Notes under the pieces: generated by a model
The model's input: the letters and a program-made list of their open reading frames with translations, nothing else
Told to the model about the DNA's origin: nothing
Databases searched by the model: none
Shown: positions 1-11,994 of the stretch, one piece after another
Layout of the letters: every line of letters begins with the position of its first letter
Position numbering within the stretch: position 1 is the stretch's first letter
IMG/VR virus record: IMGVR_UViG_3300036802_000312
Direction: 5' to 3' (one strand)
DNA length: 64,000 bases
Source of the DNA: an uncultured virus (IMG/VR IMGVR_UViG_3300036802_000312)
Taxonomy: Duplodnaviria; Heunggongvirae; Uroviricota; Caudoviricetes
Position numbers and translations under genes: made by a program

Positions 1-306
1 ATGGAGGTGAAAGACAGTATGAATAACATAAGTGCAGCAAACGCAACGATGAATCATTTCAATATTCAGCCAGTGGGCAGATTTAGCCTACTTATTCAAA
101 CATGCCTTTTACCACAAGCTAATATTGAGTTTAGTAAACATGAGGATCGCAAATCTTATCCGTCAACAGAACAAGTGGCGATTTGGGGAGGGTTATATCC
201 GAAAGTACAAAGGTGTCTTGTAGAAAAAATACCGATATACTCGTTTATCTTGAAGTGGTGTACCCATTTTAGAGAGAAGCGTTATACAAGTAAATTTTCA
301 GTGTAG
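1..306 (+). CDS. hypothetical protein (possibly 5'-partial)
   Basis: ORF track; followed by an intrinsic terminator at 325-355. Confidence 0.35.
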   Translation: MEVKDSMNNISAANATMNHFNIQPVGRFSLLIQTCLLPQANIEFSKHEDRKSYPSTEQVAIWGGLYPKVQRCLVEKIPIYSFILKWCTHFREKRYTSKFSV

Positions 307-324
307 CTAATAGGCTACAAACAA

Positions 325-355
325 GACACCCATCGAAAAGATTGGGTGTTTTTTT
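325..355 (+). terminator. intrinsic terminator
   Basis: GACACCCATC-gaaaa-GATTGGGTGT hairpin followed by a T-run. Confidence 0.7.
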
Positions 356-373
356 ATTGAAATTTTAAAATAT

Positions 374-466
374 GGATAGGTACTCAAGTGGTTAAGAGAA
401 TCCCCTGCTAAGGGATTAGGCGATCTAAACAATCGTGCGAGGGTTCAAATCCCTCTCTATCCTCCA
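374..466 (+). tRNA. trnS: tRNA-Ser(GCT)
   Basis: loop ctGCTaa, long variable arm, CCA. Confidence 0.92.
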
Positions 467-471
467 TATAT

Positions 472-546
472 GGGCAAGTAGCCAAGAGGTGAAGGCTGTT
501 GACTGCAAATCTTCGAGCGGTGGTTCGATTCCACTCTTGCCCTCCA
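472..546 (+). tRNA. trnC: tRNA-Cys(GCA), weak anticodon stem
   Basis: gttga ctGCAaa tcttc; CCA. Confidence 0.85.
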
Positions 547-566
547 ATAAAAAAATGAAAGAATAT

Positions 567-643
567 GCGGTTATGATGGAATTGGCAGACATCCTTGCCT
601 AAGAAGCAAGGTTTTGAGGGTTCGAGTCCCTCTATCCGCACCA
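567..643 (+). tRNA. trnL: tRNA-Leu(AAG), short variable loop
   Basis: cttgc ctAAGaa gcaag; Leu-type D-arm GGAATTGGCAGAC; 5-nt variable region. Confidence 0.85.
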
Positions 644-649
644 TAATTA

Positions 650-724
650 AGGGATGTAGTTCAGTGGAAGAACACTTGTTTTGGGAACAAGATGTCGTAA
701 GTTCGATTCTTACCATTCCTACCA
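650..724 (+). tRNA. trnP: tRNA-Pro(TGG)
   Basis: cttgt ttTGGga acaag; CCA. Confidence 0.88.
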
Positions 725-735
725 AATTAAATTAT

Positions 736-809
736 AGAGGTATCGTTCAACGGTAGGACTGCGGCTTCCAACCCCGCCAATCAGGGTTCAACTCCTTGTG
801 CCTCTGCCA
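736..809 (+). tRNA. trnW: tRNA-Trp(CCA)
   Basis: gcggc ttCCAac cccgc; G73, CCA. Confidence 0.85.
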
Positions 810-816
810 ATTATAT

Positions 817-896
817 GCTCCCTTATTGCTCAGTCAGGTTAGAGCACACGTCTTATATGCGTGGGGTCGTTGGTTCAAATCCAACAGGGAGTACCA
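817..896 (+). tRNA. trnI: tRNA-Ile(TAT)
   Basis: cacgt ctTATat gcgtg; CCA. Confidence 0.85.
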
Positions 897-900
897 ATAT

Positions 901-974
901 AGGGGATTCGTTTAGTGGTAGGACATAACACTTTGACTGTTATTGCGTAGGTTCGATTCCTGCATCCCCCGCCA
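901..974 (+). tRNA. trnQ: tRNA-Gln(TTG)
   Basis: taaca ctTTGac tgtta; CCA. Confidence 0.9.
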
Positions 975-978
975 AAAT

Positions 979-1054
979 GGTTTTGTAGCTCAATCGGGAG
1001 AGCGTTGCACTGTCACTGCAAAGGTAGCGAGATCGAAACTCGTCAAGACCGCCA
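979..1054 (+). tRNA. trnD: tRNA-Asp(GTC)
   Basis: ttgca ctGTCac tgcaa; T-loop ATCGAAA. Confidence 0.88.
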
Positions 1055-1060
1055 TTATAT

Positions 1061-1136
1061 GGATCTTTAGCTCAGTTGGAAGAGCGTTTGGCTCATAACC
1101 GAATGGTCACAGGTTCGATTCCTGTAGGATCCACCA
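1061..1136 (+). tRNA. tRNA(CAT), Ile2-like or elongator Met
   Basis: tttgg ctCATaa ccgaa; body resembles Bacillus tRNA-Ile2 (GGAYCTTTAGCTCAG...). Confidence 0.85.
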
Positions 1137-1145
1137 AAAAATTAT

Positions 1146-1221
1146 TGACGTGTAGCTCAGTGGTAGTAGCAACCGCCTGTTAAGCGGAGAGTCGTAGGTT
1201 CGATCCCTACCATGTCAGCCA
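1146..1221 (+). tRNA. trnN: tRNA-Asn(GTT)
   Basis: loop ctGTTaa; CCA. Confidence 0.9.
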
Positions 1222-1224
1222 TAT

Positions 1225-1311
1225 GGGAAAGCGGCGAAGTTGGAGAGTCGTGGCAGACTGTAAATCTGCTGTCGAAAGGCTGAGTGAGTTCGAATCTCAC
1301 CTTTCCCACCA
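1225..1311 (+). tRNA. trnY: tRNA-Tyr(GTA)
   Basis: gcaga ctGTAaa tctgc; long variable arm. Confidence 0.92.
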
Positions 1312-1345
1312 AAATAAAATTATACAAAGAAAGGAAGTGTTCTTC

Positions 1346-1390
1346 ATGCGAGAGAGTGATGAGGTAGAGGAAGAAATGATGAAAACATAA
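1346..1390 (+). CDS. Glu-rich mini-ORF MRESDEVEEEMMKT preceding tRNA-Glu
   Basis: SD AAAGGAAGTG; ATG..TAA; 5/14 Glu. Confidence 0.65.
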   Translation: MRESDEVEEEMMKT

Positions 1391-1393
1391 TGT

Positions 1394-1470
1394 GGCTCCG
1401 TTGACAAACTGGTTAAGTCACCAGACTTTCAATCTGGTCATTGCGGGTTCGAATCCCGTCGGAGTCACCA
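1394..1470 (+). tRNA. trnE: tRNA-Glu(TTC)
   Basis: ccaga ctTTCaa tctgg; CCA. Confidence 0.92.
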
Positions 1471-1520
1471 CAAAAGTAAAATAGATTGAATATTCTGAAT
1501 ATAAAAGGAGAGTGAAGTGC

Positions 1521-1568
1521 GTGAAAAGTGACAAATCAGACAAATCAATAAAATATATGTCTTCGTAG
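1521..1568 (+). CDS. Lys-rich mini-ORF MKSDKSDKSIKYMSS overlapping tRNA-Lys
   Basis: SD AAAGGAGAGTGA; GTG start; stop TAG = tRNA nt 8-10. Confidence 0.7.
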   Translation: MKSDKSDKSIKYMSS

Positions 1569-1634
1569 CTCAATTGGTAGAGCAAGGAACTTTTAATTCC
1601 GAGGTTGCAGGTTCAAGTCCTGTCGGAGACACCA
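1559..1634 (+). tRNA. trnK: tRNA-Lys(TTT)
   Basis: aggaa ctTTTaa ttccg; CCA. Confidence 0.92.
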
Positions 1635-1640
1635 ATGTAT

Positions 1641-1714
1641 GCGGATGTAATTTAAAGGTAGAATGCTTGTTTTCCAAACAAGTCATGAGGGTTCGATTCC
1701 CTTCGTCCGCTCCA
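1641..1714 (+). tRNA. trnG: tRNA-Gly(TCC)
   Basis: cttgt ttTCCaa acaag; U73, CCA. Confidence 0.9.
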
Positions 1715-1721
1715 AAAATAT

Positions 1722-1790
1722 CGCTGTGACAGGTGTGCGTTAGGCTTCATAAGCCCGATTGCGAGGGTTCAAGCCCCTCCACTGCAACCA
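1722..1790 (+). tRNA. D-arm-reduced tRNA-like RNA with CAT anticodon
   Basis: acceptor, anticodon (ttCATaa) and T arms plus ACCA present; D-arm replaced by ACAGGTGTGCGT. Confidence 0.6.
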
Positions 1791-1793
1791 TTT

Positions 1794-1869
1794 CGGCTCG
1801 TAGCTCAGTTGGTAGAGCTTCGGTGTGAAGTACCGAGAGTCGGGGGTTCAAATCCCTCCGAGCCGACCA
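1794..1869 (+). tRNA. trnF: tRNA-Phe(GAA), atypical loop
   Basis: tcggt gtGAAgt accga; CCA. Confidence 0.88.
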
Positions 1870-1906
1870 TAATTTCTACAGTTAAAATGAAAGAGGTGAA
1901 ATAAAC

Positions 1907-1966
1907 ATGCGACAGAGAGTTCGACAGCGTTACATAGTGAACTATATTAATACTATTCTCCTATAG
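1907..1966 (+). CDS. Gln/Arg mini-ORF MRQRVRQRYIVNYINTILL overlapping tRNA-Gln
   Basis: SD AAAGAGGTGA; stop TAG = tRNA nt 8-10. Confidence 0.6.
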   Translation: MRQRVRQRYIVNYINTILL

Positions 1967-2030
1967 CATATTGGTAATGCACCTGGCTTTGAACCAGGGG
2001 AACACAGTTCGATTCTGTGTGGGAGTGCCA
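1957..2030 (+). tRNA. trnQ: tRNA-Gln(TTG)
   Basis: cctgg ctTTGaa ccagg; CCA. Confidence 0.9.
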
Positions 2031-2043
2031 AATTAACATTTAT

Positions 2044-2119
2044 GCGTCTTTAACTCAGTGGACAGAGTGCTTGGTTTCGACCCAAGTTGTCGGGAGTTCA
2101 AATCTCTCAAGGCGCTCCA
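2044..2119 (+). tRNA. trnR: tRNA-Arg(TCG)
   Basis: cttgg ttTCGac ccaag; CCA. Confidence 0.88.
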
Positions 2120-2123
2120 TTAT

Positions 2124-2201
2124 CTGGATTTAGCTCAGCTTGGTTAGAGTACGTGCCTTGGACGCACGGGGTCGTTGGTTCAAATCCAACAGTCCAGACC
2201 A
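2124..2201 (+). tRNA. trnP: tRNA-Pro(TGG)
   Basis: cgtgc ctTGGac gcacg. Confidence 0.9.
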
Positions 2202-2206
2202 AATAT

Positions 2207-2283
2207 GCTGAATTAGCTCAGTAGGTTAGAGTATCCCTCTGATAAGGGGAAGGTCGATGGTTCGAGTCCATCATTCAGTACCA
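2207..2283 (+). tRNA. trnI: tRNA-Ile(GAT)
   Basis: tccct ctGATaa gggga. Confidence 0.9.
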
Positions 2284-2288
2284 AATAT

Positions 2289-2366
2289 TGCGGAGTGGTA
2301 GCAGTCTGGTAGCTCGCTTGGCTCATAACCAAGAGGTCAAGGGTTCAAATCCCTTCTCCGCAACCA
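2289..2366 (+). tRNA. trnM: tRNA-fMet-like (CAT)
   Basis: initiator-type D-arm (GCAGTCTGGTAGCTCG), ctCATaa, ends CCGCAACCA. Confidence 0.85.
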
Positions 2367-2367
2367 T

Positions 2368-2443
2368 GGGATCGTAGCTCAATTGGTAGAGCAGCGGCTT
2401 TGCAAGTCGAAGGTTGGAGGTTCAAGTCCTCTCGGTTCCACCA
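2368..2443 (+). tRNA. trnA: tRNA-Ala(TGC)
   Basis: loop ttTGCaa; G3:U70. Confidence 0.9.
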
Positions 2444-2452
2444 AAATAATAT

Positions 2453-2528
2453 TGGCGTGTAGAACAACTGGTAGTTCAGCTCACTGTTAATGAGAAGGTT
2501 GTAGGTTCGAATCCTATCATGCCAGCCA
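2453..2528 (+). tRNA. trnN: tRNA-Asn(GTT)
   Basis: ctca ctGTTaa tgag. Confidence 0.88.
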
Positions 2529-2532
2529 ATAT

Positions 2533-2608
2533 GGTTCTGTAGCTCAATCGGGAGAGTGCTTGCTTGTCACGCAAGAGGTAGCGAGATCAAAACTCGTCAG
2601 AACCGCCA
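2533..2608 (+). tRNA. trnD: tRNA-Asp(GTC)
   Basis: cttgc ttGTCac gcaag. Confidence 0.88.
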
Positions 2609-2617
2609 AAAATATAT

Positions 2618-2704
2618 GGGGAAACGGCGAAGTAGGAGAGTCGTGGCAGACTGTAAATCTGTTGCCTTTGTGCTCAGTGAGTTCGAATCTCACTTTCCCC
2701 ACCA
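2618..2704 (+). tRNA. trnY: tRNA-Tyr(GTA)
   Basis: gcaga ctGTAaa tctgt; long variable arm. Confidence 0.92.
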
Positions 2705-2733
2705 ACTCAAATACTGAAAGGATGGTGATCTCT

Positions 2734-2778
2734 ATGACAGAGGTTGGCGAGGAAAGATTTAAAGAAACATTTGATTAA
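2734..2778 (+). CDS. Glu-rich mini-ORF MTEVGEERFKETFD preceding tRNA-Glu
   Basis: SD AAAGGATGGTGA; 4/14 Glu; same length and spacing as 1346-1390. Confidence 0.65.
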   Translation: MTEVGEERFKETFD

Positions 2779-2781
2779 CAT

Positions 2782-2856
2782 GGCGTGGTGGTGAAATTGG
2801 AATAACACACCGCACTTTCACTGCGGGATTTGCGAGTTCGAGCCTCGTCCACGTCA
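2782..2856 (+). tRNA. trnE: tRNA-Glu(TTC), no encoded CCA
   Basis: ccgca ctTTCac tgcgg. Confidence 0.85.
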
Positions 2857-2865
2857 TAACATTTT

Positions 2866-2941
2866 GCTCGGTTAGCTCAAATGGTAGAGCAACGGTATCG
2901 TAAACCGTAGGCTATGGGTTCAAGTCCCTTATCGAGCACCA
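2866..2941 (+). tRNA. trnT: tRNA-Thr(CGT)
   Basis: acggt atCGTaa accgt. Confidence 0.88.
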
Positions 2942-2971
2942 TTATTTAATTAGAGAAGAGAGGGTGATGAA

Positions 2972-3019
2972 ATGAAGAGTGACAAAGGAAATAAATCAGA
3001 TAAACGTAAGTCCTCGTAG
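2972..3019 (+). CDS. Lys-rich mini-ORF MKSDKGNKSDKRKSS overlapping tRNA-Lys
   Basis: SD GAGAGGGTGA; stop TAG = tRNA nt 8-10. Confidence 0.7.
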   Translation: MKSDKGNKSDKRKSS

Positions 3020-3085
3020 CTCAATTGGTAGAGCAAGCGGCTTTTAACCGAGAGGTTACAGGTTCAAATCCTGTCGGGGACACCA
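3010..3085 (+). tRNA. trnK: tRNA-Lys(TTT)
   Basis: agcgg ctTTTaa ccgag; CCA. Confidence 0.88.
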
Positions 3086-3091
3086 ATTTAT

Positions 3092-3165
3092 GCGGATGTA
3101 GTTTAAAGGTAGAATGCCAGCTTGCCAAGTTGGTTGTGAGGGTTCGATTCCCTTCATCCGCTCCA
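3092..3165 (+). tRNA. trnG: tRNA-Gly(GCC)
   Basis: ccagc ttGCCaa gttgg. Confidence 0.9.
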
Positions 3166-3204
3166 AAAATACTTAAATTAACGAATGAAAGAGGTGAGGG
3201 TAAG

Positions 3205-3255
3205 ATGCCACAGCAAGGAGAACAGAAAATCTCAGTTTTAATTGATCTCCCGTAG
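3205..3255 (+). CDS. Gln-rich mini-ORF MPQQGEQKISVLIDLP overlapping tRNA-Gln
   Basis: SD AAAGAGGTGA; stop TAG = tRNA nt 8-10. Confidence 0.65.
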   Translation: MPQQGEQKISVLIDLP

Positions 3256-3319
3256 CATATTGGTAATGCACCTGGCTTTGAACCAGGTAAACACAGTTCA
3301 ATTCTGTGCGGGAGTGCCA
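3246..3319 (+). tRNA. trnQ: tRNA-Gln(TTG)
   Basis: cctgg ctTTGaa ccagg. Confidence 0.9.
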
Positions 3320-3338
3320 CAAAAATAGTTTTAATTAT

Positions 3339-3415
3339 CTGGACTTAGCTCAGTTTGGTAGAGTACATGCTTTGGACGCATGGGGTCGTTGGTTCAAATC
3401 CAGCAGTTCAGACCA
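3339..3415 (+). tRNA. trnP: tRNA-Pro(TGG)
   Basis: catgc ttTGGac gcatg. Confidence 0.9.
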
Positions 3416-3420
3416 TACAT

Positions 3421-3499
3421 GCCTGTATGGTGGAATGGCAGACACGATTGGTTTAGAGCCAGTTGCTTCGGCGTGGGGGTTCAAGTCCCTCTACAGGCA
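3421..3499 (+). tRNA. trnL: tRNA-Leu(TAG), no encoded CCA
   Basis: attgg ttTAGag ccagt; variable arm. Confidence 0.88.
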
Positions 3500-3509
3500 C
3501 TTAAAATAT

Positions 3510-3586
3510 GCTGTTATAGCTCAGTTGGTTAGAGTACCCGTCTGATAAGCGGGAGGTCAGTGGTTCAAATCCATTTAACAGCACCA
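3510..3586 (+). tRNA. trnI: tRNA-Ile(GAT)
   Basis: cccgt ctGATaa gcggg. Confidence 0.9.
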
Positions 3587-3592
3587 AAGTAT

Positions 3593-3668
3593 TGACATGT
3601 AGCTCAGCGGTAGTAGCATCCGACTGTTAATCGGAGAGTCGTAGGTTCGATCCCTACCATGTCAGCCA
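3593..3668 (+). tRNA. trnN: tRNA-Asn(GTT)
   Basis: tccga ctGTTaa tcgga. Confidence 0.9.
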
Positions 3669-3672
3669 ATAT

Positions 3673-3746
3673 GGGGAAATAGTTTAATGGTAGAACAGTG
3701 GCTTCCAAACCCGCTGGTGTGGGTTCGATTCCTGCTTTCCCTGCCA
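3673..3746 (+). tRNA. trnW: tRNA-Trp(CCA)
   Basis: gtggc ttCCAaa cccgc. Confidence 0.85.
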
Positions 3747-3757
3747 AAATGAAATAT

Positions 3758-3833
3758 GGTGTCGGTAGCTCAATGGTTAGAGTGCTGGACTGTGAATCCA
3801 GCGATGCGAGTTCGATCCTCGTCCTTCACCCCA
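3758..3833 (+). tRNA. trnH: tRNA-His(GTG)
   Basis: ctgga ctGTGaa tccag; G-1, C73. Confidence 0.88.
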
Positions 3834-3838
3834 AATAT

Positions 3839-3914
3839 GGTTCTGTAGCTCAATCGGGAGAGTGCTTGCTTGTCACGCAAGAGGTAGCGAGATCGAAACT
3901 CGTCAGAACCGCCA
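3839..3914 (+). tRNA. trnD: tRNA-Asp(GTC)
   Basis: near-identical to 2533-2608. Confidence 0.88.
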
Positions 3915-3922
3915 AAAGATAT

Positions 3923-3995
3923 GGGTTCGTAGCTCAATTGGAAGAGCAACTGCTTTGCAAGTAGAAGGTCGGAGGTTCGAATCCTTCTAAACCAG
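3923..3995 (+). pseudogene. tRNA-Ala(TGC) with degenerate 3' acceptor strand
   Basis: D, anticodon and T arms intact; 3' strand (taaacca) does not pair with GGGTTCG. Confidence 0.6.
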
Positions 3996-4030
3996 TCAAT
4001 TGAAATCAGAGAGGATGATTCAAATGAAAT

Positions 4031-4387
4031 ATGGGATTTGTCGTTGAAGGATTAAATGACGAGAAACATCTAAAAGAAGTGATGCCTGATGCCCATTGTG
4101 TTGTTACAAACGGAACGAGAATGAATGGACGAGTGCAAATGGATATTAATCATGCATTATCTCTCTGTGATGAAGTTTATTTACTCACTGATCCCGATGA
4201 AGCAGGAGATACTTTAGCGAAAATGGTTTGGCGGTTGTATCCTTCTTTACCAAGAGTTTTGTTGGATCGATATGAATGCACAACTTATCGGAATTTAAAA
4301 CTGAAGGTGGGTGTGGAACATTGCGAATTGGAGTACTTGAGACATGTTTTGTTTGAATATTTGAACAATCTTGATTTGTCTCTGTAG
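4031..4387 (+). CDS. Toprim-domain protein, RNase M5/YusF-like
   Basis: VVEG..D, TNG, LLTDPDEAG (DxD) and GVEH motifs of the RNase M5 family. Confidence 0.8.
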   Translation: MGFVVEGLNDEKHLKEVMPDAHCVVTNGTRMNGRVQMDINHALSLCDEVYLLTDPDEAGDTLAKMVWRLYPSLPRVLLDRYECTTYRNLKLKVGVEHCELEYLRHVLFEYLNNLDLSL

Positions 4388-4636
4388 TTTATCGGGGTAA
4401 CAGTATTTTTAGATCTTGAAGGTTCAAAAGCCTTCTACGTCATTAATTTAAATAATGGCGTAACAAAAAAAAGAAGCTCCACCCCGCCAAGAGTTAAGCT
4501 GCTTCACGTTCTTCGTTCTTATTATACGCTTTTACAGATAGCGTTGCAATGTGGGGACAAATAAGAAATTTAGCGGTTTAAGAAGATTGGAATTAGTTCT
4601 TATTTTTAGATGATCTTAAAACATGAAAGTTTATAT

Positions 4637-4718
4637 GCGGGTATGGTGGAATGGCAGACACGGTGGATTTAAGACCCACTGCGAGAGCGTACAGGTTCAA
4701 GTCCTGTTACCCGTACCA
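4637..4718 (+). tRNA. trnL: tRNA-Leu(TAA)
   Basis: gtgga ttTAAga cccac. Confidence 0.88.
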
Positions 4719-4723
4719 AATAT

Positions 4724-4805
4724 GCGGATGTGGTGGAATGGCAGACACGGTAGATTCAAAACCTACTGCTTTGGCATGAGAGTTCAAGTCTCTCCATCTG
4801 CACCA
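4724..4805 (+). tRNA. trnL: tRNA-Leu(CAA)
   Basis: gtaga ttCAAaa cctac. Confidence 0.88.
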
Positions 4806-4813
4806 AAATATAT

Positions 4814-4889
4814 GCTTGTTTAGTTCAGTCGGTAGAATAGCTGTTTTGTAATCAGAAGGTCGGGGGTTCGATTCCCTCAACAAGCACCA
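4814..4889 (+). tRNA. trnT: tRNA-Thr(TGT)
   Basis: loop ttTGTaa; CCA. Confidence 0.85.
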
Positions 4890-4895
4890 TACTAT

Positions 4896-4968
4896 GCTGG
4901 TTTAGTTCAGTTGGGAGAATGTCTGTTTTGTAATCAGAAGGTCGGGGGTTCGAGTCCCTCAACCAGCA
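4896..4968 (+). tRNA. trnT: tRNA-Thr(TGT), no encoded CCA
   Basis: tandem paralog of the previous gene. Confidence 0.85.
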
Positions 4969-4999
4969 TCATCAAACAAAATGAAAGGAAGTGATTAGT

Positions 5000-5047
5000 G
5001 TGAAGAGTGACAAAGATGGCAAGTCCAATAAACATTTGGGTGTGTAG
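5000..5047 (+). CDS. Lys-rich mini-ORF MKSDKDGKSNKHLGV overlapping tRNA-Lys
   Basis: SD AAAGGAAGTGA; GTG start; stop TAG = tRNA nt 8-10. Confidence 0.7.
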   Translation: MKSDKDGKSNKHLGV

Positions 5048-5113
5048 CTCAATCGGTAGAGCAACGGTCTTTTAAACCGTAGGTAGTGGGATCGTAACCC
5101 ACCGCACCCACCA
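5038..5113 (+). tRNA. trnK: tRNA-Lys(TTT)
   Basis: acggt ctTTTaa accgt; T-loop ATCGTAA. Confidence 0.88.
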
Positions 5114-5125
5114 TATATATAATTT

Positions 5126-5202
5126 GCTCGCTTAGCTCAGTAGAGGAGAGCGTTCGGTTTACACCCGAAAGGTCATGGGTTCGAGTCCCTTAGCGAGTAC
5201 CA
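5126..5202 (+). tRNA. trnV: tRNA-Val(TAC)
   Basis: ttcgg ttTACac ccgaa. Confidence 0.9.
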
Positions 5203-5205
5203 TAT

Positions 5206-5280
5206 GCGGATATGGTATAAAGGTAGTGCCGTAGCCTTCCAAGCTATAGAAGACGGGTTCGAGTCCCGCTATCCGCTCCA
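5206..5280 (+). tRNA. trnG: tRNA-Gly(TCC)
   Basis: gtagc ctTCCaa gctat. Confidence 0.9.
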
Positions 5281-5300
5281 ATAATATTAACACTCACTAT

Positions 5301-5431
5301 GCGGAAATCGTCTAAAGGTAGGACACCCCCCTCCAGGGGCGTGAATGTGTGGTTCGCTACCACCAGGATGAGTAGCCCTCATCTGCACGATAGTCAATGA
5401 GATCGAGGTTCGATTCCTTGTTTCCGCTCCA
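5301..5431 (+). ncRNA. 131-nt tRNA-Gly-like RNA with a large inserted multi-hairpin domain
   Basis: GCGGAAA/TTTCCGC-TCCA acceptor, D and T arms, about 60-nt structured insert. Confidence 0.6.
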
Positions 5432-5436
5432 ATTAT

Positions 5437-5511
5437 TGTCTGAAAGCTTTGATGGTGAAGCTGATCTCAGCGCAAGAGATGAATGTAGTTCAATTCTACA
5501 TCAGACAGCCA
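5437..5511 (+). tRNA. tRNA-like RNA, undetermined identity (loop AGCGCAA, no U33)
   Basis: perfect TGTCTGA/TCAGACA-GCCA acceptor, D and T arms. Confidence 0.6.
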
Positions 5512-5514
5512 TAT

Positions 5515-5590
5515 ATCCTCGTAGCTCAGTCGGAAGAGCATGGAGCTTCTACCTCCAGTGTCAGGGGTTCGAGTCCCTTCGAGGATGCCA
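5515..5590 (+). tRNA. trnR: tRNA-Arg(TCT)
   Basis: tggag ctTCTac ctcca. Confidence 0.9.
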
Positions 5591-5594
5591 ATAC

Positions 5595-5663
5595 AGCGGC
5601 ATAAGGTGTGCGTTTTCTCTCATAAGGAAGATTGTGTAGGTTCAAGTCCTACTGTCGCTACTA
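5595..5663 (+). tRNA. second D-arm-reduced CAT tRNA-like RNA
   Basis: AGCGGCA/TGTCGCT acceptor, TAAGGTGTGCGT connector, ctCATaa. Confidence 0.55.
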
Positions 5664-5696
5664 AATCAAATTTAATGTTTAAGGTGGGTGAGATTG

Positions 5697-6137
5697 ATGA
5701 CTACATTCAAAGTTTACACCGATGCTTCCTCTCGCTATAAAGCGATTGTAGAAGATACAGGAAGTGAAAGGGGGCTGCGAAAAGTCTATCCTTCATCCAT
5801 CGGAGCAGTTATAAAAAATGGTGAACAAGTGATTGGATCAATATCTGAAAAAATAGGTTTTTCAGATTCAAACTATGCTGAATTTTTAGCGATGTACACC
5901 GCTTGTCGATACTTGATTGATCATAAAATTACAAAGGTTGATTTTTATGCTGATTGTCTAAACCTTGTACTGATGATTAATCAAAAAATTATCAGTGGAA
6001 TTCCAGAACTACGGAATCTTTCTTATGCAATCCTTGATTGCTTAAATCAGATCGATAATTATACCGTCACTTGGATCCCACGAAACAGCAACAAAGAAGC
6101 GCATAACATGGCTTCTCAAGCTTTCAAAGTCAGCTAA
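5697..6137 (+). CDS. RNase HI-like protein
   Basis: VYTDAS, SNYAEFLA, YADC, WIPRNSNKEAHNMA motifs. Confidence 0.85.
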   Translation: MTTFKVYTDASSRYKAIVEDTGSERGLRKVYPSSIGAVIKNGEQVIGSISEKIGFSDSNYAEFLAMYTACRYLIDHKITKVDFYADCLNLVLMINQKIISGIPELRNLSYAILDCLNQIDNYTVTWIPRNSNKEAHNMASQAFKVS

Positions 6138-6153
6138 TAACTGACCTTGATTT

Positions 6154-6229
6154 CGGCTCGTAGCTCAGTTGGTAGAGCTTCGGTGTGAAGTACCGAGAGT
6201 CGGGGGTTCAAATCCCTCCGAACCGACCA
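6154..6229 (+). tRNA. trnF: tRNA-Phe(GAA)
   Basis: near-identical to 1794-1869. Confidence 0.88.
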
Positions 6230-6235
6230 TTATAT

Positions 6236-6311
6236 ACTTCATTAGCTCAGAGGACAGAGTGCTTGGCTACGAACCAAGAAGTCGGGAGTTCAAATCTCTC
6301 ATGGAGTGCCA
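6236..6311 (+). tRNA. trnR: tRNA-Arg(ACG)
   Basis: cttgg ctACGaa ccaag. Confidence 0.9.
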
Positions 6312-6318
6312 CAAATAT

Positions 6319-6395
6319 CTGGACTTAGCTCAGTTTGGTAGAGTACATGCCTTGGAAGCATGGGGTCGTTGGTTCAAGTCCAACAGTTCAGACCA
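6319..6395 (+). tRNA. trnP: tRNA-Pro(TGG)
   Basis: catgc ctTGGaa gcatg. Confidence 0.9.
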
Positions 6396-6400
6396 TATAT

Positions 6401-6477
6401 GCTGTTATAGCTCAGTTGGTTAGAGTGCCTGTCTGATAAGCAGGAGGTCAGTGGTTCAAATCCATTTAACAGCACCA
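6401..6477 (+). tRNA. trnI: tRNA-Ile(GAT)
   Basis: cctgt ctGATaa gcagg. Confidence 0.9.
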
Positions 6478-6482
6478 AATAT

Positions 6483-6559
6483 GCTGAATTAGCTTAGTTA
6501 GGTAGAGCATCCCCTTGGTATGGGGAAGGTCGATGGTTCGAATCCATTATTCAGCTCCA
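6483..6559 (+). tRNA. trnT: tRNA-Thr(GGT)
   Basis: tcccc ttGGTat gggga. Confidence 0.88.
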
Positions 6560-6564
6560 ATTAT

Positions 6565-6640
6565 GGGGTCATAGCTCAATTGGTAGAGCGACTGCTTTGC
6601 AAGCGGAAGGTTAAGGGTTCAAGCCCCTTTGATTCCACCA
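6565..6640 (+). tRNA. trnA: tRNA-Ala(TGC)
   Basis: loop ttTGCaa; G3:U70. Confidence 0.9.
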
Positions 6641-6667
6641 TTAAAGAATATGAATGAGGTGTAAGTT

Positions 6668-7552
6668 ATGAACGTGCTGTTTTGTTCTAATCCGCTCAAT
6701 TCCAAACAAGTAGATGAAGAGTATGAGCAAGAATATAATATAGCTCGATTTATGGGAATTAATCCGGCTTTAATTGATATCGAATCATTGTTGGAGGGGG
6801 ATGCAAAATCCGCTATACGATCTGTTCGTAAAAATGAAAATAGTTCACTTGCGATTTATCGTGGATGGATGTTAACGCCACATCATTATCGAGAACTATA
6901 TGAAGCTTTAAAAACCAAAAACATAGCATTAATTAATACACCTGAACAATATATTCATTGTCATTACCTTCCTAACAGCTTTGAACATATTCAATTAAAA
7001 AGTATGGAGACAAAGTGGATGAAGGTAACCGAGATGGATTTACTCCTGAAAGCAATGCTAAAGAGCTTCGGCAATAGTGCCTTGATCGTAAAAGATTACG
7101 TAAAGTCAAGAAAACATGATTGGCATGAAGCTTGTTTTATTCCTACTGCGAGTGATACTGAGCAAGCTGAAAAGGTCATTCGTCGATTTATCGAGTTGCA
7201 AGCAGAAATGCTTGCCGAGGGAATTGTACTTCGTGAATTTGTGGAACTTGAAATCATGGGCTATCACCCTTTAAGTAACATGCCACTTGCAAATGAAAGA
7301 AGATTATTCTTCTTAAATCATCAACTCATAGCTAATTTTGAATATTGGGATGAAATGCTTTACAACAATGACCACTTCCCATTAGAGGAATTTGTTACAT
7401 TAGCCCGAAAAGTGAAAAGTAATTTCTTCACAATGGATGTAGCAAAGAAGAGTAATGGAGAATGGATAATTATGGAGCTTGGTGACGGTCAAGTGTCTGG
7501 ATTGCCCATAAAAGCAGATTTGAAATCATTTTATGAGCAAATTTGTTTATGA
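6668..7552 (+). CDS. ATP-grasp domain protein (R2K/DUF4343-like)
   Basis: YRGWML, IVKDYVKSRKH, ERRLFF, FTMDVA, IMELGDGQVSG; SD GAGGTG. Confidence 0.8.
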   Translation: MNVLFCSNPLNSKQVDEEYEQEYNIARFMGINPALIDIESLLEGDAKSAIRSVRKNENSSLAIYRGWMLTPHHYRELYEALKTKNIALINTPEQYIHCHYLPNSFEHIQLKSMETKWMKVTEMDLLLKAMLKSFGNSALIVKDYVKSRKHDWHEACFIPTASDTEQAEKVIRRFIELQAEMLAEGIVLREFVELEIMGYHPLSNMPLANERRLFFLNHQLIANFEYWDEMLYNNDHFPLEEFVTLARKVKSNFFTMDVAKKSNGEWIIMELGDGQVSGLPIKADLKSFYEQICL

Positions 7553-7675
7553 AAATATTAAGAACTGTTAAGTAATGAAGAAATCGTTCTTGAAGCGATT
7601 TTAAGATCGGTTTCTTCACTTAACCAGTAGCATTTATGGGGTAGTAGCTCACCTCTCGATTTCACTAAAAAATAT

Positions 7676-7775
7676 GTGGAGTATACAACTGGTGTTGTCA
7701 GAGTCGCACTCTGAGTGGGGTTTGATTCCCTTTTATCATGATGACTGGTAGGTTCAATTCCTGCATTCCGCACAA
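7676..7775 (+). ncRNA. tRNA-like RNA with an extra T-loop-like arm
   Basis: GTGGAGT/ATTCCGC acceptor, ACAAC/GTTGT D-arm, CAGAGT/ACTCTG arm, GGGtttgattCCC extra arm, GTAGG ttcaatt CCTGC T-arm. Confidence 0.5.
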
Positions 7776-7783
7776 TAAACTAT

Positions 7784-7871
7784 GGAGTCATGGCTGAATG
7801 GCTAAAGCACCGTCCTGCTAAGACGGCGAAGGGGAAACCCTGTACAGGTTCGAATCCTGTTGACTCCGCCA
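7784..7871 (+). tRNA. trnS: tRNA-Ser(GCT)
   Basis: ccgtc ctGCTaa gacgg; long arm. Confidence 0.92.
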
Positions 7872-7874
7872 TAT

Positions 7875-7962
7875 GGATCGTTGGCAGAGAGGCTTAATGC
7901 ATCATCTTGGAAAGGTGACGAGTGTAACAGCTCCGTAGGTTCAAATCCTACACGATCCGCCA
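7875..7962 (+). tRNA. trnS: tRNA-Ser(GGA)
   Basis: tcatc ttGGAaa ggtga. Confidence 0.92.
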
Positions 7963-8022
7963 AAAACATTTTAGTAATTGTGTACAGTTGCGTCTAAGTG
8001 TAGACGTTTCACAAAAAAATAT

Positions 8023-8100
8023 CTGGATTTAGCTTAGCTTGGTTAGAGTACGTGCCTTGGAAGCACGGAGTCGTTGGTTCGAATCCAACAGTCCAGACCA
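8023..8100 (+). tRNA. trnP: tRNA-Pro(TGG)
   Basis: cgtgc ctTGGaa gcacg. Confidence 0.9.
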
Positions 8101-8104
8101 ATAA

Positions 8105-8194
8105 GGAGAGTTGGCAGAGTCAGGCTTAATGTACCAGTTTCGAAAACTGGAGGGTGTAACAGCTCCAAGGGTTCAAATCCCTTACTCTCCTCCA
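8105..8194 (+). tRNA. trnS: tRNA-Ser(CGA)
   Basis: ccagt ttCGAaa actgg. Confidence 0.92.
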
Positions 8195-8219
8195 CAATAG
8201 ATTTTGTATAATTATATAT

Positions 8220-8306
8220 GGAAGGCTACCGAAATGGTTATAACGGCGTTGCTTTGAAAGCTTCTGTGATTTAAAAGTCCTGGGGGTTCGAATCCCCCGC
8301 CTTCCT
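8220..8306 (+). tRNA. trnS: tRNA-Ser(TGA), no encoded CCA
   Basis: gttgc ttTGAaa gcttc (weak stem). Confidence 0.75.
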
Positions 8307-8313
8307 TTTAATA

Positions 8314-8418
8314 TGAGTTTCGGTCTTTATCTAACGTAATGTTAGGGCTTGTTTACTCCTAAAACCTCCTCCTTAGAATCGACCTCCATCCACTATTTAC
8401 GATAATCCGAATGACTCA
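8314..8418 (+). ncRNA. candidate C-rich (anti-SD) sRNA
   Basis: terminal stem TGAGT-TTCGG/CCGAA-tg-ACTCA enclosing ACTCCT, ACCTCCTCCTT, GACCTCC. Confidence 0.35.
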
Positions 8419-9196
8419 AACGTTTGAATATAAAAAAACTAAAAGCAGATCATGGGATTTGCTTTTTTATTGTGAAATTATTTATTTTAGTTTTGCATCC
8501 ATATACATAGAGAAAACAAAAAAAGCCAGCAATATCTCTGACTTTTAGGTGATACTCGTTATTTGATCCAATAACGTATCCAAGTATTATAACTTGTGTC
8601 CACGTTAGGTTTAAGGTTGAACGTTTCTGTCTCTGTAGGACAAGTGTCATGACTATACTCTAAATGTTGATAAGATTTTAGTTCATTATCGGGTATGTTT
8701 TCAAGTGAAAAGCCTTTGAGTCTTGTAGATAATGACATGATAAGACCTCCTTTAAATAGATTAGAAAGTAATTAAATGCTTTCTATATATAATAGATGGA
8801 AGTCTTAAATCTATAATAGAAATCTAAAAATAAGAAACAAGTCAACTTCTATAGTAAGCAACCGACAATTAATGACCTCTTTTAAGACTTGTAATTTTCT
8901 TAGAACAAAAAAACCAACTGTATAGTTGGCTTTTTTCCCTTATACTTATATAATATACTGAATCGATTCGGCAGTCTAAGTTTATAATTAATACATCTAC
9001 GAAAAAATATAAGTTAATGGAAGAATTATCTGTAGGTTAAATTGTAACCTTGTTAGTTATTAGCGGGATTAATTAGTTGAGAAAATTAATGAGAGAATAT
9101 ACTTTTGAATAAATCCAATTTTACATATAATCTAATAGTTTTAAATTAAATGAACAGTCGATTGTATTGATCATCTTATGTAGGCGGGTATATGGG

Positions 9197-9604
9197 ATGG
9201 AAGATTTACAATGGGAGATTTATAAGAAAGAACTAATTGATAATTTATATCAGGTTGGAATAAGCAAAAGTCTGGGGTATTTACCTATCTTGACGATTAC
9301 AAGTGAAGTGTACTGTAATTTATCAATTCAAGAGGTGCTGGATTATGCTGTAATGCATCAGATTAAATCCTTGGTATTACCGCAACCAGAATGTAATATC
9401 GGATCTGGAGCTGTTTATTTTTATAATGAGGACATGTTGATGTCTATATTGCAAAAAAATAAAGAATATTTGCAAAGTGCTGGCATACCACATGAAGACT
9501 GTTTAATGTATATACGTTACATTTCCAATCGACATGTGAGTCAAGAAAAATATCATGAAGCATATCAAGTCGTAGCTCTAACATTCAATTTATATACGAG
9601 ATAA
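9197..9604 (+). CDS. hypothetical protein
   Basis: ORF followed by terminator; distantly similar in style to 25828-26382. Confidence 0.65.
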   Translation: MEDLQWEIYKKELIDNLYQVGISKSLGYLPILTITSEVYCNLSIQEVLDYAVMHQIKSLVLPQPECNIGSGAVYFYNEDMLMSILQKNKEYLQSAGIPHEDCLMYIRYISNRHVSQEKYHEAYQVVALTFNLYTR

Positions 9605-9740
9605 TACCATTTCAAGCTGATCGTAGATTGGCTTTTTTTATATCTTCCCATCTGGAAAAGCGAAATCGATCTTTGATGAATAAATAGAATTAATAATGGA
9701 AACCCTATGTCAATGCTGCATAATGACAAAGGGGTTAACC

Positions 9741-10346
9741 ATGAATAAGCCTGAACCTTACATTGAATATGTTGCGAGAGTGAAGAAATATAAGGAAGAA
9801 TACCAGTGTGAAGATGTACCTACTATAATACTTCGTCGATGGCGAAGAGAGTTGGGTCTAAGTCTTCCTGGGAAGAAAAGCAAAATAAAAGTTGAATTGA
9901 ATAATGAAGTAAAGTCAATACCAAGACTGTCAGATGAAACAGGTATTCCAAAGGAAGTTCTTTATTACAGATATAGAAAAGGAATCAGAGGTGAAGATCT
10001 TATAAACACTGAATCTTTGTCTTCTCGTACAATAAGAGTTAAATATAAAGGGGAATTGATTACCTTAAATCAATTAGCTGAAAAAATCGGAATTCAAAAG
10101 GATTCGCTCTATTCAAAACTTCGAGAAGGTTCAGAAGGAGTCAAATTGACTAAAGAGGTTAAGTCTAAAGCGAAAATATTGATTGAGTATAACAATGAAT
10201 TTAAAACCGTTGAGGAATTGTCGAGGGAATTGGGGATTCCTAAAAGTACATTGTATTATAGAATTCGAAATGCTGCTAAAAAGAATAACGTTAGAAGAAA
10301 AACAGCGCAAGTGGAAATAGAAGATATCAATTCTACTGATAAATGA
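9741..10346 (+). CDS. protein with three tandem HTH repeats (HNH-endonuclease C-terminal type)
   Basis: repeats of I.YxGE.xTL.xLAE..GI.K..LYYR. Confidence 0.7.
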   Translation: MNKPEPYIEYVARVKKYKEEYQCEDVPTIILRRWRRELGLSLPGKKSKIKVELNNEVKSIPRLSDETGIPKEVLYYRYRKGIRGEDLINTESLSSRTIRVKYKGELITLNQLAEKIGIQKDSLYSKLREGSEGVKLTKEVKSKAKILIEYNNEFKTVEELSRELGIPKSTLYYRIRNAAKKNNVRRKTAQVEIEDINSTDK

Positions 10347-10588
10347 ATCACAATCTAATTTAGTTATAAAAAACTGATAGTGATGTTATTCGTTTTATTA
10401 CACATCAATATGAATAAATTTCAAGTGTATTAACATAAAAAAGCTGAGCTGATCTTCGGATTAGCTCTTTTTGGTTTTTGAGTAGTTAATTAAAAAAGCC
10501 CAAGTATAATAAAGAAAATGCAGAGCCATGGAGTTATCAATATAACAATTTTAAAACTTGAGATTTATATATGAGAGGATGAGAAAAG

Positions 10589-11770
10589 ATGGATGTATCA
10601 ATTTTTTCTACATATGAAAGTGTGCTGTCAGGTAAAATCAAGAGATTTCCAGGGCACACATGGGAAGGTCATAATCATGGGAAAGAATCATTTAAGCGTT
10701 GTTTTAGATATCTTATAAACGAACATCTTAGTATAACAAAAGAAGAATTACTGGAACGTGTGAATTTTTCTTTTTTTCGATTATTTAAGCTTGGAGGAGG
10801 TATCAATTTGTTTAATGACAGTCCATATGAGGCTGTTGCTTTTAGTTTTCCTGAGTGGAATATTCAACCTTGGGAATTGAAATCAACTCCAAATAGCTAT
10901 TGGAATCTGGATACATGTAAATTAGCAGTTCGTTGGCTCTTTCATGAAAAATTAAAATGGGATAGATATGAAATTTGTCAGAATTCGACTCAATTATTAT
11001 TTAAAGAATACAAAATTGAAAAAGCTATTCAAGCTCTTAGAAAAAAGAAAATTTATCCCAAAACAGGATTTTTTGAAGCGATTCATTTTTCATTTCCTGA
11101 GTACAAATATATGAAATGGGAATTCAAAAATGTGGGAACTTGGTCAAAAATTGAAATTAAAGATGCAGTGAAATGGATATTTGAGGTTGAACTTCAATGG
11201 TCTGTTGAAATGATTCAAAAAAGAATTAATCTTAAAATATTTAGCCATCATAATTTATTGAATTTATTCTATATTTATTTTGGGAACTTGTACGAATTAA
11301 TGGAATATGTTTATCCTGCTCAGGATTGGACAGGTTTAAAAGAATTCACATTCTTCATTCGCTCTGAAGAGCGAATTATAGATCTTAGAGACGAGGGAAA
11401 ACAAGTATATGGATACAAGATGACTGATGCTGAGGTAATAGAAGCCAGAAAATTGTACTATTCAGGTCAATTAAACTACAATCAATTAGGTGAAAAGTAT
11501 GGGTTTAATAATGAAACCATGAGTAATGCCATTAGAGGAGTTACATATTCACATATCAAAGAAGGAATCCCAATTGATGACAAGTTCATTCGAACATCTG
11601 TCCTTGCAAAAGAATATGAAATTGATGAGCGGCGTATTCGTTGTTTGATTGAAATAGGAATATTACGGGGGAGAAAATGGGGAGCTTTTTGGTATGTAGA
11701 TCCTGAACAGGCTCGTGAATATTATTTAAACCCCAAAAATGTTATTAAAAGGAGAAAAATAAATAGTTAA
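10589..11770 (+). CDS. DUF4046-like repeat protein with C-terminal HTH domains
   Basis: YESVLSGKIKRFP..W, SPYEA...FPE..PWELK..P..YW repeats. Confidence 0.7.
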   Translation: MDVSIFSTYESVLSGKIKRFPGHTWEGHNHGKESFKRCFRYLINEHLSITKEELLERVNFSFFRLFKLGGGINLFNDSPYEAVAFSFPEWNIQPWELKSTPNSYWNLDTCKLAVRWLFHEKLKWDRYEICQNSTQLLFKEYKIEKAIQALRKKKIYPKTGFFEAIHFSFPEYKYMKWEFKNVGTWSKIEIKDAVKWIFEVELQWSVEMIQKRINLKIFSHHNLLNLFYIYFGNLYELMEYVYPAQDWTGLKEFTFFIRSEERIIDLRDEGKQVYGYKMTDAEVIEARKLYYSGQLNYNQLGEKYGFNNETMSNAIRGVTYSHIKEGIPIDDKFIRTSVLAKEYEIDERRIRCLIEIGILRGRKWGAFWYVDPEQAREYYLNPKNVIKRRKINS

Positions 11771-11994
11771 CAATGAATTGCCGACTAATAATTATTAGTC
11801 GGATCTTTTTACATAGTTTATGTCGTTTGTCTTATAACAAAATAAAGAGTGATCCCTAAAAACATTCTTCACCAAAGATTTCAGCTATTAATTAAAGTAT
11901 CGATTAGAATACAATTTCTACAAAAAAACTAAAATACAGAGTACATGATAAATAAGGAGATTCTATCATTATATTTGAAAGGAAGCGTTTATTT

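Follow-up and report, generated by a model that had tools for sequence, protein, structure and literature searches.

Short translated leaders that sense tRNA supply are known from the attenuators of amino-acid and synthetase operons, trpL, hisL and pheM among them. In Bacillus subtilis, the abrB leader peptide MTKKNII contains an AAG codon that responds to loss of the U34 modification made by MnmE, and a swap to two AAA codons abolishes the response (PMC13733827). Hungry codons near the start of a reading frame cause peptidyl-tRNA to accumulate (PMC2490762). Here, we analyzed the 64,000-nt stretch IMGVR_UViG_3300036802_000312 (the window, at its whole length), which carries a tRNA array in which short open reading frames (ORFs), termed leaders below, precede nearly all of the genes for tRNA-Glu(TTC), tRNA-Lys(TTT) and tRNA-Gln(TTG). 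Our reading, to which we assign a probability of about 0.5 on the evidence of sequence comparison, is that translation of each leader would gauge how well the adjoining tRNA decodes, with an effect on the maturation of that tRNA and not on transcription.

Leaders and the tRNA genes they precede

The array spans 374..8306 and comprises 57 genes predicted by ARAGORN, all on the plus strand, which places it among the tRNA array units defined by at least 20 tRNAs at a density of at least 2 per kb (PMC4758250). A leader is present at 7/8 of its Glu(TTC), Lys(TTT) and Gln(TTG) genes versus 0/49 of the other tRNA genes (Table 1). The seven leader-bearing genes share a 67-88-nt spacer, a strong Shine-Dalgarno (SD) site with an anti-SD duplex of −11 to −18 kcal/mol, and an ORF of 14-19 codons that is enriched in the cognate codon, so that each leader has the make-up of an attenuator-type sensor (short ORF, SD, codons for the sensed amino acid). 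The gene directly 3' of each leader is the cognate tRNA in 7/7 cases, not a protein-coding ORF as in the abrB type. The sole exception among the eight genes is a tRNA-Gln with a 4-nt spacer; it belongs to a class that is separate in sequence and also leaderless in the related loci L001 and L002. This leaderless tRNA-Gln has A1.C72, and the leader-class tRNA-Gln genes have U1.U72; the U1-A72 pair that serves as an amidotransferase determinant is found in neither class. The tRNAs that carry both a 2-thio and an xm5 group at U34 are those for Glu, Lys and Gln (10.64898/2026.08.15.745044), and the leader-bearing set is exactly these three xm5s2U34 tRNAs, with the other U34 tRNAs (Arg TCT, Leu TAA, Gly TCC) lacking leaders.

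At the DNA level, the window best matches megaplasmids from Paenibacillus thiaminolyticus and P. polymyxa SC2 (loci L001 and L002) and, more distantly, a Rossellomorea locus; its RNase H-like protein has been recorded from a 483,535-bp contig. We read the window as part of a Paenibacillus-type megaplasmid family. Alignment of the RNase H-like protein led to three genome, six metagenome and one viral locus, among which Glu/Lys/Gln tRNAs occur only in L004 (identical to L003), L007 and L012; L005, L006, L008-L011 and L013, which lack these tRNAs, were excluded from the counts. Across six related arrays, leaders stand at 19/28 Glu/Lys/Gln genes versus 1/175 others (p = 5e-19, a value overstated by kinship), and the single case among the 175 is a TTG-start ORF without cognate enrichment. 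At 29 loci of other Bacillales genomes, such an ORF was found at 0/34 Glu/Lys/Gln and 0/147 other tRNA genes. One Glu leader of L002 (5724-5810) is intact although the tRNA-Glu 3' of it has been truncated by fusion to a tRNA-Gly.

Leaders of related design also occur in phages. A pattern scan of viral contigs, which allowed AAA or AAG at the lysine of a Ser-Asp-Lys (S-D-K) motif, returned 95 stretches (L014-L108), of which 85 have an in-frame ATG-x-Ser-Asp-Lys leader before tRNA-Lys(TTT); with L356, these M-x-S-D-K leaders total 86 viral records, 46 distinct leaders and 16 clusters. Some of these phages have SD sites; others are A-rich, lack SD sites and look Bacteroidota-like, a host assignment made from sequence style only. 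Within the family, the serine of S-D-K is specified by AGT in some leaders and by TCN in others, suggesting translation. Four such phage arrays, of 22, 28, 23 and 25 tRNAs, were read throughout, and in each of them the leader is confined to tRNA-Lys. L362 appears to hold a broken copy of the M-x-S-D-K leader.

Glu leaders are rare in phages. Pattern scans for the distinctive tRNA-Glu arm matched nothing in viral contigs or in genome contigs, although the pattern used on the latter does match L001 and L002. In a codon-neutral Glu-leader scan of viral contigs, a tRNA-Glu was present in 1/118 stretches among the matches listed. When phage tRNA-Glu genes were chosen by anticodon arm alone (119 stretches, 105 distinct, among the matches listed), an ORF with at least two Glu codons preceded 4/109 tRNA-Glu genes, two of them plausibly, and the S-D-K leader was present at 0/33 tRNA-Lys(TTT) genes of that set, again among the matches listed. 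The leaders are therefore lineage-restricted, and Glu and Gln leaders are mainly a trait of this plasmid family; searches for further Gln leaders in plasmids and phages found none. Such a leader is also absent from L227 and L228, phage regions that are named or come from a culture collection.

The two plausible phage Glu leaders are MHEPGEDPYVVEPEGER in L166 (identical to L286) and MIKESANIEEAEEQNV... in L045 (identical to L309); the former has GAG at codons 3 and 6, as in the plasmid EPGE class, yet is 56% GC. Other mini-ORFs with cognate codons were seen before phage tRNA-Ser GCT (L243, MRNKRQSSSSSSSCDDSIEG), tRNA-Ser TGA (L250, MNHSSSSSSI) and tRNA-Arg TCT (L230, MKRSFRIVKGSRRWRNG). Five SD-less phage loci (L021, L033, L050, L052, L081) share a conserved 8-codon ORF of the MVIFVPRN type before tRNA-Val TAC, with two GTT codons and its end 3-5 nt 5' of the tRNA.

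Table 1. Leaders, tRNA genes and other features of the window, with counterparts in related loci where named. Leader peptides run to their stop codon; (M) marks a GTG start in Lys leader 1 and is kept as annotated in Lys leader 3.
Feature	Position	Strand	Remarks
tRNA-Gln(TTG), leaderless	901..974	+	4-nt spacer
Glu leader 1	1346..1390	+	MRESDEVEEEMMKT, 14 aa; SD at about 1330-1339; anti-SD duplex −13.3 kcal/mol; GAG at codons 3 (1352-1354), 6 (1361-1363) and 8, GAA at 9 and 10; homologs in L001, L002, L012
tRNA-Glu(TTC) 1	1394..1470	+	3' of Glu leader 1; TTG at nt 8-10
Lys leader 1	1521..1568	+	(M)KSDKSDKSIKYMSS, GTG start; stop is TAG at nt 8-10 of tRNA-Lys; four Lys codons, all AAA
tRNA-Lys(TTT) 1	1559..1634	+	
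Gln leader 1	1907..1966	+	MRQRVRQRYIVNYINTILL; stop is TAG at nt 8-10 of tRNA-Gln 1957; CAG at codons 3 (1913-1915) and 7 (1925-1927), CGA before each (codons 2 and 6); homolog in L007
tRNA-Gln(TTG)	1957..2030	+	leader class; U1.U72 mismatch
tRNA-Arg(TCG)	2044..2119	+	no leader of its own; tRNA-Arg(GCG) at the orthologous position of L007
Glu leader 2	2734..2778	+	MTEVGEERFKETFD, 14 aa; anti-SD duplex −18.4 kcal/mol; GAG at codons 3 (2740-2742) and 6 (2749-2751), GAA at 7 and 11; in a relative from sequencing run X2, an SD-like stretch is joined just before 2734
tRNA-Glu(TTC) 2	2782..2857	+	start 2782 by Rfam, 2781 by ARAGORN; TGG at nt 8-10; CCA not encoded
Lys leader 2	2972..3019	+	MKSDKGNKSDKRKSS; AAG at codons 2 and 13, AAA at 5, 8 and 11
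tRNA-Lys(TTT) 2	3010..3085	+	
Gln leader 2	3205..3255	+	MPQQGEQKISVLIDLP; stop is TAG at nt 8-10 of tRNA-Gln 3246; CAG at codons 3 (3211-3213) and 7 (3223-3225), CAA at 4; no Arg codon
tRNA-Gln(TTG)	3246..3319	+	leader class; U1.U72
Toprim gene	4031-4387		inside tRNA array
Lys leader 3	5000..5047	+	(M)KSDKDGKSNKHLGV; AAG at codons 2 and 8, AAA at 5 and 11
tRNA-Lys(TTT) 3	5038..5113	+	U31-A39 in anticodon stem
RNase H-like gene	5688-6137		inside tRNA array
R2K ATP-grasp gene	6668-7552		inside tRNA array
tRNA-like elements	about 1722-1790, 5300-5430, 5595-5660, 7690-7775		missed by ARAGORN
Terminator-like site	8441-8466		after tRNA array
SpoIISA-family toxin gene	13057-14067		
DegS-like kinase gene	37554-38717		
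PARP with WGR domain gene	43005-44321		
Sir2 gene	62186-63079		
Pre-array ORF and hairpin	19-306 and about 326-355		
Pre-array ORF copies, L001	2871-3116, 3224-3481		
Pre-array ORF copies, L002	3920-4174, 4352-4621		
Pre-array ORF copies, L003	9955-10188, 10291-10473		
Peptidyl-tRNA hydrolase gene, L003	192-443		record annotation; upstream of Rossellomorea array

G-ending codons at the first sensor positions

The leaders show a G-ending codon bias that is real and positional, with G-ending codons first and A-ending codons later. A sequence-only reading of part of the array had drawn attention to GAG at codons 3 and 6 of both Glu leaders and to CAG at codons 3 and 7 of both Gln leaders, in a background where GAA and CAA would be expected, and had proposed that the leaders may sense the modification state of U34 as well as tRNA abundance. 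Both the codons and the expectation are confirmed: the 47 long ORFs of the window, standing in for replicon-wide usage, have GAG at 243/961 Glu codons (25%), CAG at 68/365 Gln codons (19%) and AAG at 297/990 Lys codons (30%). The four Glu anchors of the window are 4/4 GAG (p = 0.004) and the four Gln anchors 4/4 CAG (p = 0.001), at positions picked after the fact; over all cognate codons of the window leaders, the counts are GAG 5/9 (p = 0.051) and CAG 4/5 (p = 0.005).

Homologs outside the window were compared with a neutral retention rate, defined by whether a G-ending window codon is still G-ending at conserved Glu/Lys/Gln sites of neighboring genes, which is 18/40 (45%). Six Glu leaders are available (two in L001, three in L002, one of these before the truncated tRNA, and one in L012), and their anchors are GAG in 10/12 cases, versus 1/8 for later Glu codons (p = 0.0045) and versus neutral retention at p = 0.008; the residues between the anchors vary freely among these homologs while the anchors stay GAG. 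The sole homologous Gln leader, in L007, keeps CAG at 2/2 anchors. Glu and Gln anchors outside the window together are GAG or CAG in 12/14 cases versus 45% under neutrality (p = 0.002), and the synonymous codons at these positions therefore do not vary freely. Of the 20 leaders in the family, 16/20 have a G-ending codon as their first cognate codon, whereas later cognate codons end in G in 17/53 cases (p = 4e-4).

The phage leaders show the same bias at lysine. The S-D-K lysine is AAG in 44/46 distinct phage leaders (background 20%, 1035/5085) and exclusively AAG in 14/16 clusters; at the lysine three codons further on, AAG occurs 27 times and AAA 17 times. Barring T from the last position of codon 3 in a scan gave 23 stretches, of which one holds a true leader (with AGC). 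The G-ending codon typical of the abrB leader is found in the Glu, Gln and phage Lys leaders, and only partly in the plasmid Lys leaders. Selection of the G-ending codons for a decoding reason is, in our judgment, probable.

Other parts of the sequence-only reading fared differently. Both Glu leaders of the window are indeed 14 aa long, start 48 nt before the tRNA and stop 3 nt before it, and both tRNA-Glu genes have another triplet in place of TAG at nt 8-10; as a conserved feature, however, this layout did not hold, since the eight Glu leaders compared start at −35 to −52 and stop at −3 to +22 relative to the tRNA. The two CGA codons of Gln leader 1, and tRNA-Arg(TCG) as the gene after its tRNA-Gln, are as had been described, but the suggested link between them fails in the only homolog, which keeps three CGA codons in front of a different tRNA-Arg (Table 1). 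A likelier role for the CGA codons is to form a slow stretch ahead of each CAG. The sequence-only reading had made no mention of the array's three Lys leaders.

A model for control of tRNA maturation, and its rivals

We hold it to be very likely that the leaders are translated codon sensors. No terminator lies between leader and tRNA, and the 7 terminator-like sites in 1-8600 compare with 6.7 ± 3.1 in shuffles; an Rfam scan of window positions 1-12000 gave 56 matches, every one a tRNA, with no covariance-model match to a T-box riboswitch or other Rfam cis-regulator in that interval. A conserved leader-tRNA fold is likewise absent from the plasmid arrays, where pairing exceeds shuffles by more than one standard deviation in 3/18 cases and the strongest pairing (Gln leader 1) is missing in its homolog. 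In the phages, leader-tRNA pairing is above the shuffled mean in only 6/51 units, i.e. weaker than for shuffled leaders; in 46/51 folds the S-D-K motif does not pair with the tRNA, and it shows no covariation with the first bases of the tRNA. Pairing of the leader with the anticodon or acceptor was rejected by these plasmid and phage fold tests. Two other candidate reasons for the conserved bases were rejected as well: a role of the G in internal SD pairing, as GAC is preferred over GAT and the motif is kept in phages without SD sites, and a fixed UGA in the −1 frame, which is not kept in second repeats.

The geometry is conserved. The phage S-D-K lysine is codon 5 in 49/51 leader-tRNA units and always at least 17 nt from tRNA nt 1, and the Glu and Gln codons before intact tRNAs are all at least 18 nt upstream. 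A stalled ribosome reaches 13-14 nt beyond the first base of its A-site (PMC12409363), and a stall at these codons would therefore just clear the tRNA. Termination at nt −3 to +22 would, by the same measure, cover the RNase P site and the acceptor strand; in 32/46 phage leaders the in-frame stop is at tRNA nt 10, provided by the tRNA's own UAG at nt 8-10. From the lack of a terminator and of a conserved fold, together with this geometry, we infer negative feedback on maturation, and for the output as a whole we lean slightly towards negative control of tRNA maturation.

In this model, when decoding by the Lys-, Glu- or Gln-tRNA(U34) is good, the ribosome would run to the stop codon, and the terminating ribosome would mask the acceptor/D strand along with the RNase P site, such that this copy of the tRNA is not matured. 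When decoding is poor, because the tRNA has been cut by an anticodon nuclease, is uncharged, or is without its xm5 wobble group, the ribosome would stall or drop off at codons 2-8, short of the tRNA, which could then fold and be cut out. As U34 reads G by wobble, G-ending codons would be the first to become slow, and would hence be kept at the earliest positions, where they would make the switch more sensitive and responsive to MnmEG-type hypomodification in addition to tRNA loss. The alarmone ppGpp lowers wobble modification through MnmE. That U34 modification state is a real input to the leaders appears to us a serious possibility, of somewhat less than even weight. In B. subtilis, loss of mnmE raises pausing at AAG (PMC13733827); the accessible parts of PMC7694415 and PMC3936742 give no codon-specific rates. 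The s2U modification chiefly aids A-ending codons (10.64898/2026.08.15.745044), and loss of mnmA, whose product makes s2U, would therefore bear on the later codons and not on the G-ending anchors. More tentatively, from Bacilli megaplasmids to large phages, and across two styles of translation initiation, a mini-ORF that ends in the pre-tRNA may give xm5s2U34 tRNAs feedback on themselves, such that the element measures the quality and quantity of the host's Lys, Glu and Gln tRNAs and supplies a replacement only on demand, e.g. after anticodon-nuclease attack.

Several observations weigh against this model or its modification component. Leaders are lacking at 9/28 Glu/Lys/Gln genes of the related arrays, and most family Lys leaders keep a Lys codon at −8, where a stalled ribosome would still cover the start of the tRNA. 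The three Lys leaders of the window use AAG in 4/13 codons, which is background (p = 0.58), and codon 5 is AAA in 6/8 family Lys leaders. In phage leaders, the Asp of S-D-K is GAC in 37/46 (background 26%), and its Ser codon is AGC in 1 leader against AGT in 85 records, indicating a third-base constraint that reaches beyond the wobble codon. The Glu and Gln homologs outside the window are few (six and one) and related, and each Glu anchor position is GAA in one of them. On mnmE loss, only AAG pausing was reported in the accessible text, with the authors' comment that other substrates may lie below detection (PMC13733827). C34 isoacceptors in the host would read GAG, CAG and AAG without wobble, and the array of L007 holds a leaderless tRNA-Lys(CTT); a loose C34 isoacceptor pattern matched 29 times in the Rossellomorea genome (control 21) and 26 times in a partial Paenibacillus replicon (control 18), with none of the matches recognizable as a tRNA by eye. 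The wobble interpretation of the sequence-only reading thus stands in part, upheld by the anchor bias of the homologs and the coincidence of the leader set with the xm5s2U34 tRNAs and weakened by Lys leaders that are mostly AAA and by the over-conserved GAC.

The G-ending codons might instead be no more than the slower synonyms in the same feedback sensor, with tRNA abundance or charging as its only input and modification of no relevance; we regard this as rather unlikely. The tRNA specificity of RloC forms part of the background here. Lys tRNAs, and Glu and Gln tRNAs for some nucleases, are targets of anticodon nucleases, and a phage supply of tRNA-Lys rescues phage from PrrC and PARIS (PMC11555353, PMC12409363). 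Pointing in the same direction are the confinement of leaders to tRNA-Lys in the fully read phage arrays, a window Lys leader without any AAG, and the lack of reported GAG or CAG pausing on mnmE loss in the accessible text of PMC13733827. An abundance-only sensor does not account for a megaplasmid leader set that matches one modification class and omits Arg TCT, Leu TAA and Gly TCC, nor for AAG being the very codon that responds to MnmE loss in a Bacillus (PMC13733827).

A wider constraint on codon context or RNA (an AGU-GAC-AAG context, keeping of frame, avoidance of A-runs, or a nuclease or protein site) could also fix the G, and would explain the prevalence of GAC, the near-fixation of AGT at the first repeat, the Asp before the sensor codon in most Lys and several Glu leaders, and CGA before each CAG in two Gln leaders. 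We consider it improbable, as codons between the Glu anchors vary freely around unchanging GAG, the S-D-K motif is mostly unpaired with the tRNA and does not covary with its first bases, and GAC is preferred although GAT would fit the anti-SD better. A shade less probable still is an opposite sign or another route, in which completed translation would aid folding of the precursor or protect it from decay, or the peptides would act themselves. The sign of control rests on inference, and the S-D-K peptide is conserved over distant phage and plasmid lineages; an opposite sign would, however, turn the tRNA off when it is scarce, and the peptides diverge beyond the sensor codons, end in residues dictated by the tRNA, and each name the amino acid of their own tRNA. 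Common ancestry alone as the source of the G-ending codons, without third-base selection, has the few related homologs, the after-the-fact choice of positions and one exception per Glu anchor in its favor. It is nevertheless highly improbable given neutral retention of 18/40 versus 12/14 at the anchors and only 20/45 bases in common between the two Glu leaders of the window, and for the phage Lys leaders it is largely refuted, as most clusters keep AAG whereas the Lys codon that follows varies between AAA and AAG. Control of tRNA maturation by a translated sensor remains our preferred reading.

The surrounding element and comparison with known systems

Beyond the leaders, the array contains four tRNA-like elements that ARAGORN missed, two of them short CAT-anticodon forms (one detected by Rfam) and two with long extra arms. 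The Toprim, RNase H-like and R2K ATP-grasp genes lie among its tRNAs, and no viral relatives of the window's Toprim protein were found. The same element also carries genes for a SpoIISA-family toxin of a toxin-antitoxin system, a PARP with a WGR domain, Sir2 and a DegS-like kinase. Just 5' of the first tRNA stands an ORF of 60-95 codons followed by a terminator-like hairpin, with tandem copies in relatives; xxTCL and LYSK-like motifs are loosely common to the copies, and between the window and L002, 29/35 codons are identical at 50% protein identity. This ORF and hairpin are a candidate for an array-wide, translation-coupled attenuator. The Rossellomorea array has a peptidyl-tRNA hydrolase gene upstream (Table 1), and in one phage array with a Lys leader (L401), a 555-aa ORF at 7155-8822 resembles Ro60/TROVE by eye.

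If true, our reading would mean that the ribosome governs tRNA maturation gene by gene and codon-specifically, with neither a terminator nor a protein regulator. It would offer a handle on why phages and plasmids carry tRNAs, as the leaders would mark those tRNAs that the element is prepared to see fail: invariably Lys and, in these megaplasmids, also Glu and Gln. The same tRNAs are targets of anticodon nucleases and of U34 modification loss. The cassette of ~130 nt would, if the reading holds, be a compact biosensor for wobble modification.

Among described large plasmid-borne tRNA sets, the mobile tRNA arrays, for which the P. polymyxa SC2 plasmid is named (PMC4758250), and the trn operon of the Anabaena megaplasmid (PMC10272220) are the nearest. 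The words leader, peptide, spacer and intergenic are all absent from the main text of the former; the Anabaena operon is repressed under standard conditions, and, unlike in the control proposed here, a transcriptional repressor acts on that operon as a unit. As backup tRNA-Lys genes encoded by the element, the leader-bearing copies resemble the phage tRNAs that counter PrrC, PARIS/AriB and retron effectors (PMC11555353, PMC12409363), although those act by strong promoters or resistant sequence, and the word leader is absent from the main text of PMC11555353. A U39-to-A change reportedly abolishes AriB cleavage (PMC12409363), and the window's tRNA-Lys at 5038 has A39; the other two window copies have A31-U39 and G31-C39, and leader-bearing phage copies mostly A31-U39.

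The leaders themselves share a strong SD, a short ORF and cognate codons that sense tRNA supply with the trpL, hisL and pheM attenuators, and differ in having neither terminator/antiterminator nor conserved alternative fold, in standing one per tRNA in a polycistronic array, and in a likely output on processing. Like minigenes and hungry codons, they place slow codons early, where peptidyl-tRNA accumulates and drop-off occurs (PMC2490762, PMC10192219); those phenomena are described, in the accessible texts, as inhibition or quality control, whereas here they would switch a downstream tRNA. No prior description of a translated leader controlling a tRNA gene was found in the literature searched, most subscription papers lying outside it. 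The closest counterpart is the B. subtilis abrB leader, likewise a short leader with a G-ending, U34-read codon (PMC13733827). The abrB leader tunes translation of a protein gene; the window leaders abut or overlap the gene of the very tRNA they would sense, extend to Glu and Gln, and repeat their sensor codons at fixed early positions. Leader-peptide sensing is thus known, and an output on the maturation of the adjoining tRNA would be new.

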